From Candidatus Komeilibacteria bacterium RIFOXYD1_FULL_37_29 (lineage in GTDB: Bacteria; Patescibacteriota; Patescibacteriia; UBA1558; GWA2-36-10): a stretch of 64,000 bases of DNA. The position numbers and the translations under genes are program-made. Positions 7,547-64,000 of the stretch are shown here, one piece after another. The stretch is taken from NCBI GenBank assembly GCA_001818495.1, contig MHKS01000005.1:402584-466583 (forward strand), written 5' to 3'. Position 1 is the stretch's first letter; each line of letters begins with the position of its first letter. The notes beneath the pieces are model-generated. The model had not been told where the DNA came from, made no database searches, and worked only from the letters and a program-made list of their open reading frames with translations.

Positions 7547-8692
7547 ATGAAAATAGCAGAAGTAACATCTACTTTTCCACCTTATAAAGCTGGTATGGGC
7601 AATGTGGCTTATTATAATGCCTGGTCTTTGACTACTTTGGGTCATGACGTTACAGTTTTTACTACCAAGTATAAACAAAATGCTTTTTATAGTGACGAAT
7701 ATCCTTTTAAAGTCCAAAGATTGGGTGCTTGGTTTAAATACGGTAATGCCGGGATTTTACCGCAGTTATTTTATAAACTGCACAATTTTGATGTTATTCA
7801 TTTGCATTATCCTTTTTTTGGTGGCGCGGAAATTATTTATTTTTTGGATAAGATAAAGGATTTAAATTTGGTGGTGACTTATCATATGGATGTAGTGGGT
7901 CGGGGGCTGGCTTCCAAATTTTTTAAGTGGCATCAAAATTATGTTACGCCAAAAATTTTGGATCGAGCTGATAAGATTATTGTTACTTCTTATGACTATG
8001 CTCGAAATTCCAATTTGAAGAATCGTTTGGAAGCTGAGCCAGAAAAATTTGTAGAAATTCCCATTGGTGTCAATCAACTACTATTTAAACCCCGCTATCG
8101 TGATAGTAAAATTATTGACCAATATGACTTATATAATAAAAAAGTGATTCTCTTTGTTGGCGCTTTAGATAAAGCGCATTATTTTAAAGGCGTTAATGTC
8201 TTGATACAGGCTATAAAAAAATTAAATGCGCGAGATGATTTTAAGGTGATAATTGTCGGCGAGGGCGATTTGCGCCAAAGTTATCAGAGTGTGGTGGATA
8301 GTTTGGGGCTCAGTCGAAAGATTGTTTTTACCGGATTTGTCAGTGATGATCTGTTACCAAAATTTTATAGCGTGGCCAATATGTTGATTTTACCATCGAC
8401 TGACAAATCAGAAGCTTTTGGTACGGTTTCTTTGGAGGCCATGGCTTCAGCTGTGCCGGTAATTACTAGTGATTTACCAGGTGTGCGTTCAGTAGTAGAA
8501 AAGAAAAAAACTGGTCTTTTAGTAAAACCAGGCAATGTGGATAATCTAGCGGACATGATTGAATATTTGTTGAAAAATCCAGCGGTGGCCAAAGAGTATG
8601 GTCGAGCCGGTCGAGAAAAAATATTAGAAAAGTATACCTGGGATAAAATTACTACCAAACTGGATGACCTCATAAAATCTATTACCAAATGA
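7547..8692 (+). CDS. GT4 (GT-B fold) glycosyltransferase
   Basis: C-terminal EAFGTVSLEAMASAVPVITSD, the E-x7-E / GT4 nucleotide-sugar-binding signature. Confidence 0.7.
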   Translation: MKIAEVTSTFPPYKAGMGNVAYYNAWSLTTLGHDVTVFTTKYKQNAFYSDEYPFKVQRLGAWFKYGNAGILPQLFYKLHNFDVIHLHYPFFGGAEIIYFLDKIKDLNLVVTYHMDVVGRGLASKFFKWHQNYVTPKILDRADKIIVTSYDYARNSNLKNRLEAEPEKFVEIPIGVNQLLFKPRYRDSKIIDQYDLYNKKVILFVGALDKAHYFKGVNVLIQAIKKLNARDDFKVIIVGEGDLRQSYQSVVDSLGLSRKIVFTGFVSDDLLPKFYSVANMLILPSTDKSEAFGTVSLEAMASAVPVITSDLPGVRSVVEKKKTGLLVKPGNVDNLADMIEYLLKNPAVAKEYGRAGREKILEKYTWDKITTKLDDLIKSITK

Positions 8693-20092: not shown

Positions 20093-20671
20093 CTACTCTT
20101 CGATCCAGACGGCTTTGATCGAGCCGTCGTCGTATAGGTTGAAGCGAATCGCTTCCATGGAGTTGAGGCTGCGGGCCTCGGTCATGCCGATGGACTTTGC
20201 CAACATCGGAATGGTGGGATCGTGGAAGATCCCGACACCGATCTGGCCGTCGTTCATCAGGTCGAACATCTTTCGTAGAGCACTCTGAGCGTCGCTCTTA
20301 AACTGATCGAAAACTGACGGATCCATGTGTTTGAGCACAGCCTCCATATTAGAGAGGCCGTCTTTGATGTCGGCGCGCATGGCGTCAGTGATAGTCTTCT
20401 GGAAGAATTCGGCGGAGCCGAGGCCGTCAACGGCATCGTGGATTTCCATCTCCTGGAAGGGGTCGGACATCATCCGCATGGCGGCGAGAGTCTCACTGGT
20501 GCGGATCAGCGGTCCGTGGAAACCGTGGGAGATCTTGGTGTCGGATGTGTTGTACAGTCTGTCACCGGTGTTGTAGGCCAATTCGGCCCCGGCATGAGAA
20601 ATGTGGTTTCCGCTTTTATCCTTATCGGAGTGGCGGAACAAGTCCAGAGTTTTTACAACAAACTTGGCCAT
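20093..20671 (-). CDS. Histidine-phosphatase-superfamily-like protein encoded in a GC-rich islet
   Basis: LFRHSDKD (an RHG-like RHS variant), HGPLIRTSETLAAM, C-terminal IFHDPT. Local GC is far above the flanks, and several overlapping stop-free frames on both strands are typical of high-GC DNA. Confidence 0.5.
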   Translation of the reverse strand: MAKFVVKTLDLFRHSDKDKSGNHISHAGAELAYNTGDRLYNTSDTKISHGFHGPLIRTSETLAAMRMMSDPFQEMEIHDAVDGLGSAEFFQKTITDAMRADIKDGLSNMEAVLKHMDPSVFDQFKSDAQSALRKMFDLMNDGQIGVGIFHDPTIPMLAKSIGMTEARSLNSMEAIRFNLYDDGSIKAVWIEE

Positions 20672-20743: not shown

Positions 20744-20820
20744 ATATTAGTATAGCACATTATCCTATTTTAGTCAATATTAGTTATTAGTCTATAATAT
20801 AGTTAAAAATACTATAAATA

Positions 20821-20849
20821 TTGACATTTTTACTATATAATGCTAGACT
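20821..20849 (+). promoter_or_regulatory. Candidate sigma70-type promoter of P5 (TTGACA-N17-TAGACT)
   Basis: Consensus -35 TTGACA at 20821..20826; 17-nt spacer; weak -10 TAGACT. Confidence 0.3.
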
Positions 20850-31585: not shown

Positions 31586-32502
31586 CCATAGAAAAAAATA
31601 AAAGTTTAAAAGAATATACTACTTTTAAAATTGGCGGACCGGCTGAGTATTTTGCTGAGGTAAAAACTGCTCAAGAAGTGCAGGAAGCTTTACAGTGGGC
31701 CAAGGATAATCAACAATCGGTAAAAATATTGGGTGGTGGTAGTAATATGTTGATTGCTGACGCTGGTCTAAAAGGATTGGTTATAAAACTTAGTTTGGAT
31801 AAATTGGAGTTTGATGATTTGAAAGTAACAGTCGGACCAGGAATAAGATTGGCTTATTTATTAAATAAAGCACTAGAGAGCAATTTAACTGGTTTGGAAT
31901 TTGTCGCTGGAATTCCCGGCACAGTCGGCGGGGCAATTCGCGGTAATGCCGGCACCTATGGCCTAGCTATGGATAGTGTAGTAAAAAAAATAAAATATGC
32001 TGATGAAAATGGTCAACTTAAAGAAATAACAGCCACCGAAGCAAAATTTGCCTATCGTCATAGTATTTTTAAAGAAAATTTTTGGATTATAGTAGAAGCA
32101 GAATTGGAACTAGCCAAAGGAGATATCAAAGTTGCTCGGGTTCTGGTTAATGAGAGATTAAAGTATCGACAAGATACCCAACCAAATTTGCCATCAGCTG
32201 GCTGTATTTTTAAAAACATTCTTTTTGAAGAAGTGGATCTCAAAAAATTGGCCGAAAAAAACATTGATATTGATAAATTTTCTAAGTTTAAAAAGATTCC
32301 GGCGGCTCATTTGATTGAAAGAGCTGGTCTCAAGGGGCACGCTATTGGTGGCGCACAGGTTTCTGATGTGCATGCCAATTATATAGTCAACAATGGTAGA
32401 GCTACAGCCGAGCAGGTTATTATGCTAATTAGCTTTATTAAACAACAAGTTAGGGATAAGTATGGAGTACAATTGCAGGAAGAAGTACAATTATTTGTCT
32501 AA
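31561..32502 (+). CDS. murB: UDP-N-acetylenolpyruvoylglucosamine reductase
   Basis: FAD-binding KIGGPAEYF..GGGSN; C-terminal MurB domain. Confidence 0.75.
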   Translation: MDKKIKHMTIEKNKSLKEYTTFKIGGPAEYFAEVKTAQEVQEALQWAKDNQQSVKILGGGSNMLIADAGLKGLVIKLSLDKLEFDDLKVTVGPGIRLAYLLNKALESNLTGLEFVAGIPGTVGGAIRGNAGTYGLAMDSVVKKIKYADENGQLKEITATEAKFAYRHSIFKENFWIIVEAELELAKGDIKVARVLVNERLKYRQDTQPNLPSAGCIFKNILFEEVDLKKLAEKNIDIDKFSKFKKIPAAHLIERAGLKGHAIGGAQVSDVHANYIVNNGRATAEQVIMLISFIKQQVRDKYGVQLQEEVQLFV

Positions 32503-32546
32503 TATTAGCCAAAAAGAGTATTTTTTTACTTTTTACCCCATAGTTA

Positions 32547-32574
32547 TTGACTTTTTGAAAAAAATCTGTATAAT
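32547..32574 (+). promoter_or_regulatory. Sigma70-type promoter of the infA-rpmJ-rpsM operon (TTGACT-N16-TATAAT)
   Basis: Seen directly in sequence. Confidence 0.5.
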
Positions 32575-49569: not shown

Positions 49570-50394
49570 ATGCGTGGTATGATTAAAACCAATAAATCTT
49601 GGCAACGACACCTGCCAAAAAGACCGCAACCAGTAAAGCGGGATTATTATAATACCACTAGAGTTAGTTATCAAAAGACTGTCGTTAGGATTATTTTGGT
49701 TATTTTAGGGTTATTGCTAGTTCAAAGTATCTTTCAAATAAAATATTTTAAGATAGAAAAAATAAATTTGGCCGGTCAAAAGGATTTAAGTGTCGAAGAG
49801 GCACAACAGTTTATTATCAGTGAGCTAGCCAAGACCAAATTTTTCTTTTTTGAAGAAAATAATTACTGGCTAGCGCCAATAGATGAGCTAAGCTATCAAC
49901 TCAAGGAAAAATACAATTTAGAAGAAGCTAAAATAGAAAAAAAATGGCCGGACAGCTTGCTAGTTACGGTCAAAGAGAAAGTTTCACATTTTATTTGGCA
50001 AAAAGATAACTCATTATACCTCTTAGATGCTCACGGCCTCTTAAATCGCCAAATCAGCTTTTTGGACGATAAATACTTGGTTTTAGAAGACAAAAGAGAC
50101 TACAGACCGCAGGGTGAGCAAATTTTTACCCCTGAAGAGATAGAGGTTATCAATCAGATCTATTTGAACTGGAATGACCTAATAGCACCAAAGGTTAAAA
50201 TGTCTAAAATAACCATTTATAATGATTGGAATATAGATTTGCATACTGAGACTGGTTTTTATGTTAAAATAGACAAGGATCAAGATATTAAGGAACAGTT
50301 AAATAATCTCCGGGCAGTCTTAGAGGAGAACATTACGGGCGTTGATATAGACTATATAGATATCCGTTTCGGGGATAAGGTGTATTTTAAGTAG
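49570..50394 (+). CDS. FtsQ/DivIB-like cell-division protein (single TM plus POTRA)
   Basis: N-terminal basic region, one TM helix (ILVILGLLLV), about 270 aa; weak family signal. Confidence 0.4.
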   Translation: MRGMIKTNKSWQRHLPKRPQPVKRDYYNTTRVSYQKTVVRIILVILGLLLVQSIFQIKYFKIEKINLAGQKDLSVEEAQQFIISELAKTKFFFFEENNYWLAPIDELSYQLKEKYNLEEAKIEKKWPDSLLVTVKEKVSHFIWQKDNSLYLLDAHGLLNRQISFLDDKYLVLEDKRDYRPQGEQIFTPEEIEVINQIYLNWNDLIAPKVKMSKITIYNDWNIDLHTETGFYVKIDKDQDIKEQLNNLRAVLEENITGVDIDYIDIRFGDKVYFK

Positions 50395-50471
50395 TATCTA
50401 TTAATAGTAGGCTTTTCTGGCCTATTTATTATATAGCATACTAATTGAGTATAATAACTCTTACACTCAGT

Positions 50472-50500
50472 TTGACAAGTATAAACCTAGCCTTTATAAT
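50472..50500 (+). promoter_or_regulatory. Consensus sigma70 promoter TTGACA-N17-TATAAT directly abutting the xerC/D start codon (leaderless transcript likely)
   Basis: -10 ends at 50500; ATG at 50507. Confidence 0.5.
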
Positions 50501-50506
50501 ATAAAT

Positions 50507-51463
50507 ATGGCTAAAAGCAAGACAAAATATAATCTCCCCCTCTTAGATGAGTTTCTCGAAAATATCCAGTCCAACAACTACTCTACAGAGACGGTCTATA
50601 ACTATGAAAGAGATTTAAATACTTTTGAAAATTTTTTAGAGGAAGATATTAAAATAGAATTTGATCAGTTGAATAAAAGATATATTATCAAATTCAAGGC
50701 GTATCTCTCCTCTACTTCCAGACAGACAGCTGCTCATGAGCATGGCGAAAAAAAATTATCCAGCTACAGCATCAATCGCATACTTTCTACGCTGCGGTCT
50801 TATGTTAAATTTTTAATAGATGTAGATTATAAATCTCCGATTAGTGCTGACTCTATCAAGTTACTCAAAACTGAAAAAAAGTACGGACAGGTGCCGGAAA
50901 TGCCTGACTTGATCAAGCTGATTGAGTGTCCAACCAAATTTGAAACAGACCCAACCATCAAATTAAGAAACAGAGCTATGTTGGAAACACTTTTTGCTAC
51001 TGGCATGCGTATATCGGAGTTATTATCTTTAAAGCGCCAGCAATTGGATAATACTGGGCGTATTTATATCATGGGTAAAGGCAAAAAACAGCGCTTTGTT
51101 TATTTGACACCGCGAGCCATCAAACACATTAAAGATTATCTAGATGCTCGCCACGATGAAGCTCCTTATCTTTTTATACCCTATCGTGGTAGAAATAATG
51201 CCGATAAGTACAAAAAAATTTCTACCAATTATTTGCAGTATAAAATAAAAAGATATCGCGAACTTCTATCTATCAATATGCCAATATCGGCTCACTCTAT
51301 TCGTCATGCCTTTGCTACTTACCTAGCTGAAAATGGCGCCAACCCAGCCGCTATTCAAATACTTTTGGGTCATGAGTCACTAGACACCACTACTAGATAT
51401 GTTCATGCTAGTGATCGTTATGCTGAAAAAATGCATACGGATTTTCATCCTCTTAAAAAGTAA
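50507..51463 (+). CDS. Tyrosine site-specific recombinase XerC/XerD family
   Basis: R..HSIRHAFATYLAENGANPAAIQILLGHESLDTTTRYVHA (RHRH...Y catalytic region). Confidence 0.8.
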   Translation: MAKSKTKYNLPLLDEFLENIQSNNYSTETVYNYERDLNTFENFLEEDIKIEFDQLNKRYIIKFKAYLSSTSRQTAAHEHGEKKLSSYSINRILSTLRSYVKFLIDVDYKSPISADSIKLLKTEKKYGQVPEMPDLIKLIECPTKFETDPTIKLRNRAMLETLFATGMRISELLSLKRQQLDNTGRIYIMGKGKKQRFVYLTPRAIKHIKDYLDARHDEAPYLFIPYRGRNNADKYKKISTNYLQYKIKRYRELLSINMPISAHSIRHAFATYLAENGANPAAIQILLGHESLDTTTRYVHASDRYAEKMHTDFHPLKK

Positions 51464-51491
51464 TAAAAATATTGCGTTTGTATTATTAATT

Positions 51492-51507
51492 TAGCTAATA
51501 TTAGCTA
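51492..51507. promoter_or_regulatory. Perfect 16-bp palindrome TAGCTAATATTAGCTA upstream of a consensus promoter (copy 1 of 2)
   Basis: An identical 16-mer recurs at 63659..63674, with the same spacing to a TTGACA -35 box. Confidence 0.45.
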
Positions 51508-51535
51508 TTTTTGTTTAATCTTGGGTAATCTATTA

Positions 51536-51564
51536 TTGACACATTAGGTTAAATATGTTATTAT
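51536..51564 (+). promoter_or_regulatory. Near-consensus sigma70 promoter TTGACA-N17-TATTAT
   Basis: Seen directly; no CDS follows it. Confidence 0.5.
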
Positions 51565-51570
51565 TTAGAA

Positions 51571-51690
51571 TCGTAGCAACAGCCTCATCGTTGTTTACTA
51601 CGATAATCTGCTGGATTGCTAGCAAAGGAAGGTAATTTATGTAGATTTTTTAGGAGGGCTGACAAGCATACGGTCAGCTCTCTTTCTTTT
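51571..51690 (+). ncRNA. Candidate small RNA (about 120 nt, or about 170 nt if read through to the second terminator at 51740)
   Basis: Bracketed by the consensus promoter and two consecutive intrinsic terminators (51655..51690 and 51705..51740). Contains an internal stem atcgtag...ctacgat. No convincing ORF. Confidence 0.3.
51655..51690 (+). terminator. Intrinsic terminator (9-bp stem with one G.U, then tttcttttt)
   Basis: agggctgac/gtcagctct. Confidence 0.5.
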
Positions 51691-51704
51691 TATCCAAAAA
51701 TAAT

Positions 51705-51740
51705 AGAGACCCCCGGAGGTGACCAAGGGTCTCTTTTTCC
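51705..51740 (+). terminator. Intrinsic terminator (agagaccc/gggtctct plus ttttt)
   Basis: Seen directly. Confidence 0.45.
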
Positions 51741-51944
51741 AGTCGATAGTGACTGGTTGCCGTGACCTGTTTTGCAGGTTGAGATAGTAATATTTTTGCC
51801 CAAAATTAGAGCCGAATACTCGCCATCGGGAGCAACAGAAGTCCAATGGTTTGCACCATAGGCGTTAAAATCAGGTACTACTTCTCAAGAACAGGTCTGG
51901 TTTCTTGAGAAGATTAACATTGATTATACAATTTGTCAATTATA

Positions 51945-51975
51945 AAAGCCCTCAAACTGGAGGGCTTTTAGTAAA
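51945..51975 (-). terminator. Terminator of the M23 peptidase gene (gccctc-aaactg-gagggc; T-runs on both strands)
   Basis: Seen directly. Confidence 0.55.
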
Positions 51976-51982
51976 TATTTTT

Positions 51983-53287
51983 TTAAGGAAGATAATTTAA
52001 GGGATCAACTGGTACACCATTTAGACGTATTTCTAAATGTAAATGTGGTCCGGTAGATAGTGGCCCAGAACCTCTAGTACCCGGCATACCGCCACTGTAA
52101 CCAATAATATCTCCTTTGGAGACAAATTGATCTTCCGATACACTGATTTCATTGACATGTCCATAGACACTGGAAAGACTATCGGCATGAACTAGCATGA
52201 TATAGCTATAACCAGTATTTCCTCCATCTCTAGCTTTAGCTACATAGCCAGATTCTACCGCTCTAATGGCTGTTCCTTGTGGAGTAGCAATATCTACAGC
52301 CGGATGTTCGAAAATATAGCGATAAGGATAATCTGGATCATGGAAATAAGCGGTAATTCTTTGGGAAATAACTGGCCACATTAGACCATCGCTTTTTATA
52401 TTATCCAACTCTAATTGGCGGTTGACTTTTTCTCGAGCTACTTTTTCTAAATAAACGATGTCGCTGTTGATTTGTTCTTGTTCTTCTTTGGCTTGATTCA
52501 GTAATTCTTGATATTTAGCTTCTTGTCCGCGAGTATTGGACATCAGAGAAAATTTGACGGTTTTTTGTCCATCCAAAGTCCCCCTTTTACCTTCTAAAAT
52601 GTTATTTAAAGCATCTAATTCCCCTTTTTCATTTTCTAGGGCACCTTTATCGCTATCAAGAGCTAGTTTTATTTCTTGTAGTTCTTCTACTCCCTCAAAT
52701 AAATTATCTTGGACATCCTCTAAACGTTCTAAGTCAGCTATAAAATCACTAAAGTTGTCGTTTAGTATGAGTATTTCCAAGAGGCTATTTTTTTGCTGTT
52801 GTCTATGCAAAGATCTGAGTACTTCGGCTAAAATTTCTTTTTGCTTATTTATTTCTTCTTCTTTGGCATTGATTTTTAGTTGGGTATTTTCTATTTTTAA
52901 GTTTATTGTTTCTATTTCTAATTCAGCTGCTTCTATTTCCAAGTTTATTTTGGCGATACTTTCATTTAAGGTGCTGATTTGAGATGATAAATTACCCAAC
53001 TCTTTTTGCTTGGCAGAAATATTTTTTTGGTAGATATCAATTTGTCGTCTCAGTTCTTGTATTTCTGATCTTTTATCATTGATATCTTGGTTTATTTGCC
53101 AGGTTTCGACATTGTTTAGATCTCCCATCTTATACTCTACTGCTTCGGAGTTTTTAGCCAAAAAAATAAAACCAAAAAGTAGCATGGTCAAGATAGTGAG
53201 CGATATTTTAGGGCTGATTTTTATTTTTATTTGTAGCATGGGATGAAATATATAGTATATTATAGCATATTTTGGTAATGTTGGCAA
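51983..53287 (-). CDS. Murein DD-endopeptidase / M23 (LytM) peptidase with long N-terminal coiled coil (EnvC-like)
   Basis: Signal/TM, then an extended heptad-rich region. C-terminal M23 motifs HADSLSSVYGH and GPHLHLEIRLNG. Confidence 0.75.
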   Translation of the reverse strand: MPTLPKYAIIYYIFHPMLQIKIKISPKISLTILTMLLFGFIFLAKNSEAVEYKMGDLNNVETWQINQDINDKRSEIQELRRQIDIYQKNISAKQKELGNLSSQISTLNESIAKINLEIEAAELEIETINLKIENTQLKINAKEEEINKQKEILAEVLRSLHRQQQKNSLLEILILNDNFSDFIADLERLEDVQDNLFEGVEELQEIKLALDSDKGALENEKGELDALNNILEGKRGTLDGQKTVKFSLMSNTRGQEAKYQELLNQAKEEQEQINSDIVYLEKVAREKVNRQLELDNIKSDGLMWPVISQRITAYFHDPDYPYRYIFEHPAVDIATPQGTAIRAVESGYVAKARDGGNTGYSYIMLVHADSLSSVYGHVNEISVSEDQFVSKGDIIGYSGGMPGTRGSGPLSTGPHLHLEIRLNGVPVDPLNYLP

Positions 53288-63579: not shown

Positions 63580-63658
63580 AAATTTAGCTATACTTTAGCA
63601 AAAAAGGCCTATTTTTTCAAGTTTTAATTTATAGGTTATTATAATCTTTTTAATTAAA

Positions 63659-63674
63659 TAGCTAATATTAGCTA
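63659..63674. promoter_or_regulatory. Second copy of the 16-bp palindrome TAGCTAATATTAGCTA
   Basis: Identical to 51492..51507; followed by the same TTTTTGTT...TTGACA arrangement. Confidence 0.45.
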
Positions 63675-63701
63675 GATTTTTTGTTATAAACTTGTTTAAT
63701 A

Positions 63702-63730
63702 TTGACAAAAGACTAAATATAGTGTATAAT
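63702..63730 (+). promoter_or_regulatory. Consensus sigma70 promoter TTGACA-N17-TATAAT driving the GC-rich secreted-protein gene
   Basis: Seen directly. Confidence 0.5.
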
Positions 63731-63835
63731 AATAAATTAAATAGAATTAATCTATTTGTACCATACAACTTAAGAAAACAAGATCTAATAAACAGTTTTC
63801 TCACTTCACAACTATTTTTTCAGGAAGGGTGTACA

Positions 63836-64000
63836 ATGCGCAAAATGAAAACCTCTCTTATGGTGATGGCTCTTGTAGCTGTCCTCTGCTCTCTGTCTCT
63901 GGCTGCTCCGGTCACTGATTCGGTCCAGATCACCGGTGTCAATGGCGCCAAGGTCTATGTCTTGGTTACCCAGAATGTTATTGACAGCTTGCGACAGGCT
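63836..64000 (+). CDS. Signal-peptide protein encoded in a GC-rich islet, 3'-partial at the window edge
   Basis: MRKMKTSLMVMALVAVLCSLSLAAPV...; RBS aggaagg; abrupt rise in GC. Confidence 0.4.
   Translation, partial: MRKMKTSLMVMALVAVLCSLSLAAPVTDSVQITGVNGAKVYVLVTQNVIDSLRQA

Follow-up and report, generated by a model that had tools for sequence, protein, structure and literature searches.

A paired TAGCTA element upstream of sigma-70-type promoters, probably a Patescibacteria-wide regulatory site, at two loci of a Komeilibacteria chromosome

The 16-nucleotide palindrome TAGCTAATATTAGCTA occurs at two loci in a stretch of DNA from Candidatus Komeilibacteria bacterium RIFOXYD1_FULL_37_29 (contig MHKS01000005.1; the whole stretch of 64,000 nucleotides is referred to as the window). 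Both copies (copy 1 and copy 2, Table 1) are probably instances of a Patescibacteria-wide cis-regulatory element, TAGCTA-N4-TAGCTA, located upstream of sigma-70-type promoters. On the best reading the element is usually flanked by A/T tracts and would lie on a fixed face of the helix relative to the promoter; because its sequence, position and helical phase are constrained, it is taken to be a protein-binding site. How transcription is controlled in Patescibacteria (candidate phyla radiation, CPR) is, to our knowledge, hardly understood; their genomes are tiny, regulators that can be recognised are few, and most of these bacteria cannot be cultured. A sharply defined, phased site before genes for ribosomal proteins, translation factors, RNA polymerase and sigma factors would be a concrete entry point: it could be used as bait for the regulator and for regulon prediction in thousands of metagenome-assembled genomes, and it can help in the search for products that are specific to a lineage and highly expressed, of which the orphan secreted protein and the small RNAs without a known class described below are examples. 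The element was not found described in the literature searched on the 16-mer or on CPR promoter motifs.

Within the window the 16-mer is present in exactly two exact copies, for which an expectation of ~1e-4 per 64 kb was calculated by us from base frequencies of ~0.325 (A/T) and ~0.175 (G/C); with up to three mismatches allowed, four matches were obtained versus 0.76 in shuffles. At each copy the palindrome is followed by a T-tract and by a TTGACA-N17-TAT(T/A)AT promoter, the gap between palindrome and -35 box being 28 nt at copy 1 and 27 nt at copy 2. This arrangement had been described in an initial annotation of the window, together with the identical palindromes themselves, and was confirmed at both loci. 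The centre of the element precedes the -35 box by ~35 bp. With starts assumed 7 nt past the -10 box, as predicted from the consensus hexamers, this would be about -71 from the start (-71.5 and -70.5, respectively). The claim of one perfect 16-bp palindrome stood as far as the letters are concerned, which are exact, but the 16-mer consists of TAGCTA, ATAT and TAGCTA, that is, of two 6-bp palindromes 10 bp apart, and since the four nucleotides in the middle vary in orthologs, the recognised unit is better described in these terms. Changes there fall mostly in this spacer (ATAT, ATCT, ATTC and ATAC), one hexamer change (TAGATA, in the copy 2 ortholog L261) being found.

The position of the element is retained in relatives at both loci. 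Copy 1 was compared in the gap between the xer gene and the M23 peptidase gene of six relatives, the Xer proteins of which are 78-89% identical. In L135 the orthologous site reads TAGCTAATCTTAGCTA, with the T-tract kept and a TTGACA 27 nt away; in L136 it reads TAGCTAATTCTAGCTA, 16 nt from TTGACA; and the gap of L139 holds TGGCTAATATTAGCCA, 37 nt ahead of a TTGACA. For copy 2, only two diverged orthologs with usable contigs were available, which carry TAGCTAATATTAGATA (L261) and TAGCTAATACTAGCTA (L262); the -35 segment TTGACAAAA and the segment ATAGTGTATAAT are invariant in both, as are the -10 region and some of the 5' untranslated region (UTR). The intergenic region around copy 2 is 81-85% identical in these two orthologs versus 71-77% for the secreted-protein gene and 75-87% for the chorismate mutase gene. 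A T-tract by the site was likewise found in L135, L261, L262, L069 and L088. Contigs of the same species, including groundwater contigs and MHKQ01000005.1 (GCA_001818445.1), are identical at both loci and are uninformative on polymorphism. A solitary TAGCTA (63586-63591) was also observed beside the start codon of the chorismate mutase gene; the block around it is unchanged in L261 and L262.

The similarity between the two loci is confined to the motifs. Some 80 nt of homology had been claimed for them, and an alignment of 51483-51556 with 63647-63720 was in fact returned by blastn (81 columns, 74% identity). When inter-motif segments, promoter spacers and flanks of 40 nt were tested separately, however, they were no better than shuffles (p = 0.08, 0.06, 0.94 and 0.11). 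As the similarity beyond the motifs is at shuffle level, the two loci, judged by their sequences, share a common motif set at common spacing, and it cannot be demonstrated that they descend from a single duplicated segment. A mobile promoter cassette had also been suggested; such a cassette, by which promoter and operator were moved to new cargo, or a recent duplication would agree with the blastn alignment, with the GC-enriched and atypical nature of both cargos and with the terminator stems AGAGACCC/GGGTCTCT that they have in common. We regard this as highly improbable: inter-motif and flank similarity stay at chance, neither flanking repeats nor a whole-length likeness were found, both copies occupy orthologous positions in genomes whose flanking genes have diverged by 13-29% in nucleotides, and the element precedes core genes in other lineages.

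The palindrome could also be thought of as a weak intrinsic terminator or RNA hairpin, ending xer at copy 1, given that a 6-bp stem and a 4-nt loop are followed by a T-run at both copies and that copy 1 lies just past the xer stop codon. This carries the faintest probability of the explanations considered. The hairpin amounts to only -5.4 kcal/mol with two G-C pairs, whereas real terminators nearby have 12-bp stems; the palindrome is not called by a terminator scan; copy 2 has no co-directional upstream gene; the stem change in L261 is uncompensated; and the usual flanks in other genomes, a T-run upstream and an A-run downstream, are the opposite of those of a terminator.

Recurrence of the element in other genomes was assessed by a scan for the exact 16-mer with one genome taken per species, which yielded at least 120 loci; the source genome is not among the matches listed, and the counts in this and the following paragraphs refer to these matches. 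Titles of the Patescibacteria group are carried by 23 of the 120 loci, and ~22 further loci are from low-GC (guanine plus cytosine) metagenome-assembled genomes with similar gene content, some of them titled 'bacterium' or 'Gammaproteobacteria'. Exact sites proved to be intergenic in 46 of 48 cases (45 CPR-like loci, the window and its extension). A full promoter (TTGAC-N16-18-TAnnnT) was found within 45 nt on 22 of 244 flanks, compared with a background of 0.4%. When the gap to the -35 box was measured for 35 non-redundant promoter-flanked sites, 11 fell at 26-29 nt and nine at 16-21 nt, with a few more at 36-38 and 46-47 nt. The usual flanks elsewhere consist of a T-run before and an A-run after the site (TTTT-TAGCTAATATTAGCTA-AAAA), and arrays of three to four hexamers with a 9-10-bp period were encountered in L073, L127, L057 and L071. 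In a degenerate metagenome scan (TAGCTAANNTTAGCTA) all 16 central dinucleotides occurred; because every one of them is found, recognition at the level of the hexamer fits. The proposal of a shared dimeric-regulator site with a strong promoter is thus supported, so far as sequence can tell, by retention at both loci in relatives and by the phased recurrence in Patescibacteria-type genomes.

The genes transcribed away from the sites, the families of which were confirmed by Pfam for most, include those for ribosomal protein L10 (rplJ, in four genomes), IF-1 (infA), EF-Tu (tuf), RpoB (rpoB), ThrRS, LeuRS, HU and SSB, a DksA-like protein (two genomes), an ECF (extracytoplasmic function)-type sigma factor (two Komeilibacteria), PilB, hrcA-grpE and GC-rich signal-peptide proteins, besides stretches without an open reading frame (ORF) or Rfam match. 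Among the noncoding stretches downstream of sites in other genomes, shared sequence was found in L069 and L088 only. In two CPR-like genomes (L061 and L102) the site precedes the gene for a protein that combines sigma-70 region 4 (Sigma70_r4) with HARE-HTH. The latter is a domain of the delta subunit of RNA polymerase, and some sources annotate the whole fusion as that subunit. Viral contigs gave 27 matches, mostly hairpins in phage genomes, none of them promoter-like. An identity as the Patescibacteria LexA box was considered and rejected, the downstream gene set being unlike the SOS regulon. In Bacteroidota (L031, L032, L035, L048, L067, L074 and L090), the longer palindrome CAA-TAGCTAATATTAGCTA-TTG or a nearby TAGCTA pair was seen to adjoin genes for a conserved response regulator of ~208 aa.

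Several observations weigh against a Patescibacteria-wide element of this kind. The site is missing from the xer-M23 gap of three of the six relatives (L140, L137 and L138), and in L140 the promoter and a related RNA persist without it, so that promoter function does not depend on the site. The 10-bp periodicity of the gaps is only moderately significant (Rayleigh p ~0.006). The comparative sites were ascertained through the exact 16-mer, with at-least counts, which makes the numbers biased and incomplete, and ~16 of the CPR-like loci are titled 'Gammaproteobacteria' and were treated as CPR-like by gene content and low GC. Some sites are too close to the gene for an upstream activator, for example that of L081 at 48 nt from the start codon, and because of these the direction of regulation may differ between promoters. 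The search for a cognate regulator, proposed at the outset, gave no candidate among the small and unknown ORFs of the window (Pfam and PDB), which represents ~6% of the ~1-Mb genome.

With these reservations, we propose that each hexamer would be recognised by a small dimeric DNA-binding protein, in the way in which KorA and RptR recognise TAGCTA, and that two dimers would bind side by side, one helical turn apart. They would be seated next to the A/T tract, where the C-terminal domain of the RNA polymerase alpha subunit could dock, and might from there influence how polymerase is recruited. Of stimulation, as by a class I activator, and repression, the former seems the likelier: an activator or architectural enhancer fits better because of the centre at ~-71, the A/T tract, the 10-bp phasing and the highly expressed downstream genes. 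In the source genome the element would co-regulate a small RNA (from 51571 on), the secreted protein (from 63836 on) and probably the operon of infA and ribosomal-protein genes.

A KorA-, RptR- or antitoxin-like repressor that binds cooperatively, spreads over or occludes the A/T tract and the -35 box and thereby damps very strong promoters is the principal competing explanation, though rather unlikely. Every characterised TAGCTA binder represses (RptR, PMC12255303; KorA, PMC11790492). Some CPR sites lie 0-16 nt from the -35 box or over it, and the hexamer arrays suggest cooperative oligomerisation. The same double hexamer stands before at least 25 Phd/YefM genes, and antitoxin operators are autorepressive. 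The sites of the window and those of the largest spacing class, on the other hand, end 26-29 nt upstream of the -35 box and thus outside the core promoter, whereas the operators of RptR and KorA overlap the -10 box. A phasing in helical turns is, moreover, rather what contact with RNA polymerase would lead one to expect. An intrinsic promoter architecture without a dedicated protein, in which bent DNA or an UP-like element is read by the alpha subunit of RNA polymerase, is improbable. The site is AT-rich, has T- or A-tract flanks and accompanies promoters that are already of consensus type, all of which would suit such an architecture. UP elements and bends tolerate sequence change, but while the spacer drifts, no G or C of the hexamers has changed (except in TAGATA of L261); proteins have been proven to bind this hexamer in other systems, and most strong promoters of the window are without the site.

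A role in chromosome organisation or recombination, as a divergent parS, a KorB-like site or an Xer dif site, was weighed as well and is scarcely to be expected. Xer dif is a single site of ~28-30 bp per chromosome, located at the terminus and made up of two 11-bp arms and a 6-8-bp centre. Copy 1 adjoins the highly conserved xer gene, in a part of the window (near 50-51 kb) where gene orientation and GC skew change, but two copies 12 kb apart, with variants, and sites before many different genes in other genomes are not a single terminus site, and no sequence past the xer stop codon is conserved across relatives. A 16-bp palindrome is reminiscent of parS, and the half-site TTTAGC is that of the KorB operator OB (PMC11790492); a nearly all-intergenic, promoter-phased placement would not be expected of parS, however. 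DnaA-box-like motifs lie within 80 nt of 3.9% of the sites versus 1.4% expected. A link to oriC or DnaA was rejected, the enrichment being only ~3-fold and no DnaA boxes lying near the sites of the window. As an observation in its own right, the DnaA-box-like TTATCCAC(A) was seen 16-25 nt from the double-TAGCTA site in L082, L115, L129, L212 and L240 (also in L094 and L235).

Table 1. Features at and around the double-TAGCTA sites (positions in the window; a dot is given where no strand applies).
Feature	Position	Strand	Remarks
Weak variant TAGTCAATATTAGTTA	20771..20786	.	TTGACA at 20821 follows after 34 nt; perhaps a chance match
Degenerate site TGTCTAATATTAGCCA (3 mismatches)	32496..32511	.	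End of murB; 35 nt upstream of TTGACT-N16-TATAAT (32547-32574) of infA-rpmJ-rpsM
Copy 1, double-TAGCTA site (TAGCTA-ATAT-TAGCTA)	51492..51507	.	29 nt past xer stop codon; centre ~-71.5 from predicted start
T-tract TTTTTGTTT	51508..51516	+	Abuts copy 1; possible UP-element-like or bent segment
Sigma-70-type promoter TTGACA-N17-TATTAT	51536..51564	+	-35 TTGACA 51536-51541, 17-nt spacer, -10 TATTAT 51559-51564; 11/12 matches; TG ahead of -10
Candidate small RNA A	51571..51691	+	Two hairpins and terminator-like T1 (51652-51684, then TCTTTTT); predicted start
Bidirectional terminator-like hairpin AGAGACCC...GGGTCTCT	51705..51739	.	T-runs on both strands; common to two convergent units
Promoter and candidate small RNA B (~51904 to 51697)	51697..51939	-	TTGACA 51939-51934, N17, TAATCT 51916-51911
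Copy 2, double-TAGCTA site	63659..63674	.	Divergent region between chorismate mutase gene (-) and secreted-protein gene (+); centre ~-70.5
T-tract GATTTTTTGTT	63675..63685	+	Abuts copy 2
Consensus promoter TTGACA-N17-TATAAT	63702..63730	+	-35 TTGACA 63702-63707, 17-nt spacer, -10 TATAAT 63725-63730; 12/12 matches
5' UTR (~100 nt) and start of secreted-protein gene	63737..64000	+	ATG 63836; conserved hairpin 63739-63757; runs off the window

The window is an ordinary piece of chromosome of Komeilibacteria type. The genes serS, alr, ftsQ and xer are located upstream of copy 1 and are followed by the gap, the M23 peptidase gene and gltX; further on, def, fmt, pyrD and finally the chorismate mutase gene are found, after which the gap with copy 2 and the secreted-protein gene end the window. 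The sources of Xer homologues bear the names Komeilibacteria, Parcubacteria and Patescibacteria. The Xer-type tyrosine recombinase (50507-51463) is unusually conserved, with 66-89% identity to proteins from Komeilibacteria, Parcubacteria, Nomurabacteria and Magasanikbacteria (source names), and the ftsQ-xer synteny is kept, a second recombinase gene being inserted upstream in L137. Over ~50000-52000 the GC skew falls from ~+0.15-0.2 to ~0, at the place where the genes switch from all-plus to mixed orientation; the drop near 50-51 kb may reflect transcription-coupled skew or a replication landmark.

Downstream of copy 1, a noncoding transcript in a gene-free stretch had been proposed. Judged by sequence, this is supported: between 51565 and 51980 no credible ORF is present, only short unconvincing ones, and the stretch is structured and ends in terminator-like hairpins; it holds two convergent units, however, rather than one. 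The plus-strand candidate (small RNA A, ~120-170 nt, unclassified) has a fold z-score of -4.6. It contains a Shine-Dalgarno-like AAAGGAAGGT (51624-51633) followed by a minimal ATG-TAG start-stop (51639-51644), and an AGGAAGG motif in or near its hairpin loop recurs in L140, L135 and L136. On the minus strand, a TTGACA-N17 promoter just inside the terminator of the M23 peptidase gene is kept in the window, L135, L140 and L137, and the RNA predicted from it (small RNA B) folds into a long rod followed by a terminator. Because this conserved promoter faces the same bidirectional terminator, the gap is read from its sequence as holding two convergent small-RNA-like units. The minus-strand RNAs of the relatives are too diverged to be aligned, and no consensus-structure pairs were predicted for them; that the minus-strand RNA might be 6S-like is a guess. 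The 8-mer stem pair of the bidirectional terminator occurs in the window only at 51705-51734, and it also ends the secreted-protein gene beyond the window (L012, ~8505-8535).

No tRNA or tmRNA was found by ARAGORN in 51565-51980. Searches against Rfam gave no match for the window at the gathering threshold, chance-level matches only for 51300-52100 at E up to 10 (both strands), and no match in the orthologous gaps or in ten other loci. Close relatives differ greatly in the content of the xer-M23 gap, the length of which runs from 88 to 795 nt. In L139 (3435-4263) two GC-rich noncoding promoter-to-terminator units of ~250-330 nt were observed; this gap has 47% GC and no Rfam match.

Copy 2 had been placed before a GC-rich secreted-protein gene starting at 63836, and this gene is real: it encodes a 301-aa protein with a signal peptide, has 49% GC and continues beyond the window (L012, 8564-9469, minus strand). 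Only four homologues were found among 5.8 billion proteins, and there was no significant Pfam match. The gene has 48-50% GC in three lineages, the neighbouring gene having 23-29%, and conservation is higher in the region upstream of it than within the coding sequence.

As to the two imperfect sites of the window, a perfect site is carried by L049 at the position before infA that corresponds to the degenerate site at 32496. The weak variant at 20771, when read on the other strand, overlaps a -35-like TTGACT of the GC-rich gene 20671-20093. This gene (20093-20671, minus strand) has a strong Shine-Dalgarno sequence and no Pfam match, and its 1-kb bin has 44.5% GC versus ~35% elsewhere.

In a wider and more tentative reading of these sequences, which we hold to be possible, TAGCTA-N4-TAGCTA would be the operator for a global regulator of Patescibacteria not described so far, by which the apparatus of translation and transcription would be coordinated with small RNAs and with secreted proteins specific to a lineage. 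In its bolder form, the regulator would be a domesticated antitoxin-like or KorA/RptR-like protein tying the growth control of these reduced symbionts to a module derived from mobile elements; this is suggested because the same double hexamer is the apparent operator of Phd/YefM-PIN modules. A hidden Markov model of the site-associated antitoxins gave no copy in the window or in the Komeilibacteria loci examined.

Among known systems, RptR comes close in sequence. It binds TAGCTA inside TTTAGCTAA direct repeats, needs two or more copies spaced by about a turn of the helix, and binds with one dimer per hexamer and cooperatively (PMC12255303); its operator sites, found in type I restriction-modification/DarTG defence islands of Gammaproteobacteria and thus in another lineage, overlap the -10 box of RptR's own promoter and serve to repress a defence island (PMC12255303). 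The 6-bp core and the pairing of hexamers are the same here, copy 1 reads TTTAGCTAA, and TAGATA, seen in the ortholog L261, is tolerated by RptR. At both loci at least two hexamers of the set TAGCTA/TAGATA/TATCTA/TATATA lie within one to two helical turns. The sites of the window differ in their placement, 27-28 nt upstream of the -35 box of housekeeping, small-RNA and secreted-protein promoters and not over the -10 box. No gene for a 79-aa regulator adjoining the sites and no restriction-modification genes are present in the annotated parts of the window, where the neighbours are xer, the M23 peptidase gene, the chorismate mutase gene and pyrD; the small ORFs of the window gave no PDB or Pfam match, no search aimed at RptR homologues having been made.

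KorA of the IncP plasmid RK2 is similar in the core of its operator (TTTAGCTAAA), which is bound by a small helix-turn-helix dimer, and, on the reading proposed here, in that one regulator serves many promoters of a replicon as a global regulon. Its operator reads TGTTTAGCTAAACA; OA (GTTTAGCTAAAC) is a 12-bp palindrome that overlaps the -10 box and mediates repression (PMC11790492; PDB 2W7N). OA is thus a single plasmid-borne palindrome over the -10 box, whereas the CPR element is a chromosomal double hexamer upstream of the -35 box; of the full OA only the TAGCTA core, plus TTTAGCTAA in copy 1, is matched in the window, and no genome-wide search for KorA was made.

Among the matches listed, the largest protein family adjoining TAGCTA-N3-5-TAGCTA is a Phd/YefM-type antitoxin followed by a PIN toxin, with at least 25 members in many phyla. 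The sites lie 0-30 nt before the antitoxin gene (L020, L051, L052, L070, L075, L078, L086, L091 and L098; further L125, L133, L146, L159, L168, L187, L225 and L233), the product of which has the N-terminus MxVNMHEAKTxLSKL, and high-GC genomes are included. Before these genes TAGCTA-N4-TAGCTA looks like a conserved putative toxin-antitoxin operator. These Phd/YefM-PIN (VapBC-like) modules share with the window the layout TAGCTA-N4-TAGCTA, often as the exact 16-mer, with constant hexamers and a variable spacer, and one of them (L020) is on a CPR-like contig. They differ in that their putative operators precede the antitoxin start codon by only 0-30 nt and are presumably autorepressive, and no such antitoxin is encoded beside the sites of the window.

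In architecture the element resembles the class I activator sites of E. coli, where CRP is bound at -61.5, -71.5 and -82.5, and the activation of rRNA promoters by Fis and UP elements. The upstream location, the A/T tract and the translation-apparatus genes are common to both, and the helical-turn phasing, with predicted centres near -61, -71 and -81, would be so too; the sequence is unrelated (TGTGA-N6-TCACA for CRP), and activation would be a prediction for the element described here. The known use of TAGCTA, which lies in operators of plasmids and defence islands, would be extended to housekeeping promoters on the chromosome.

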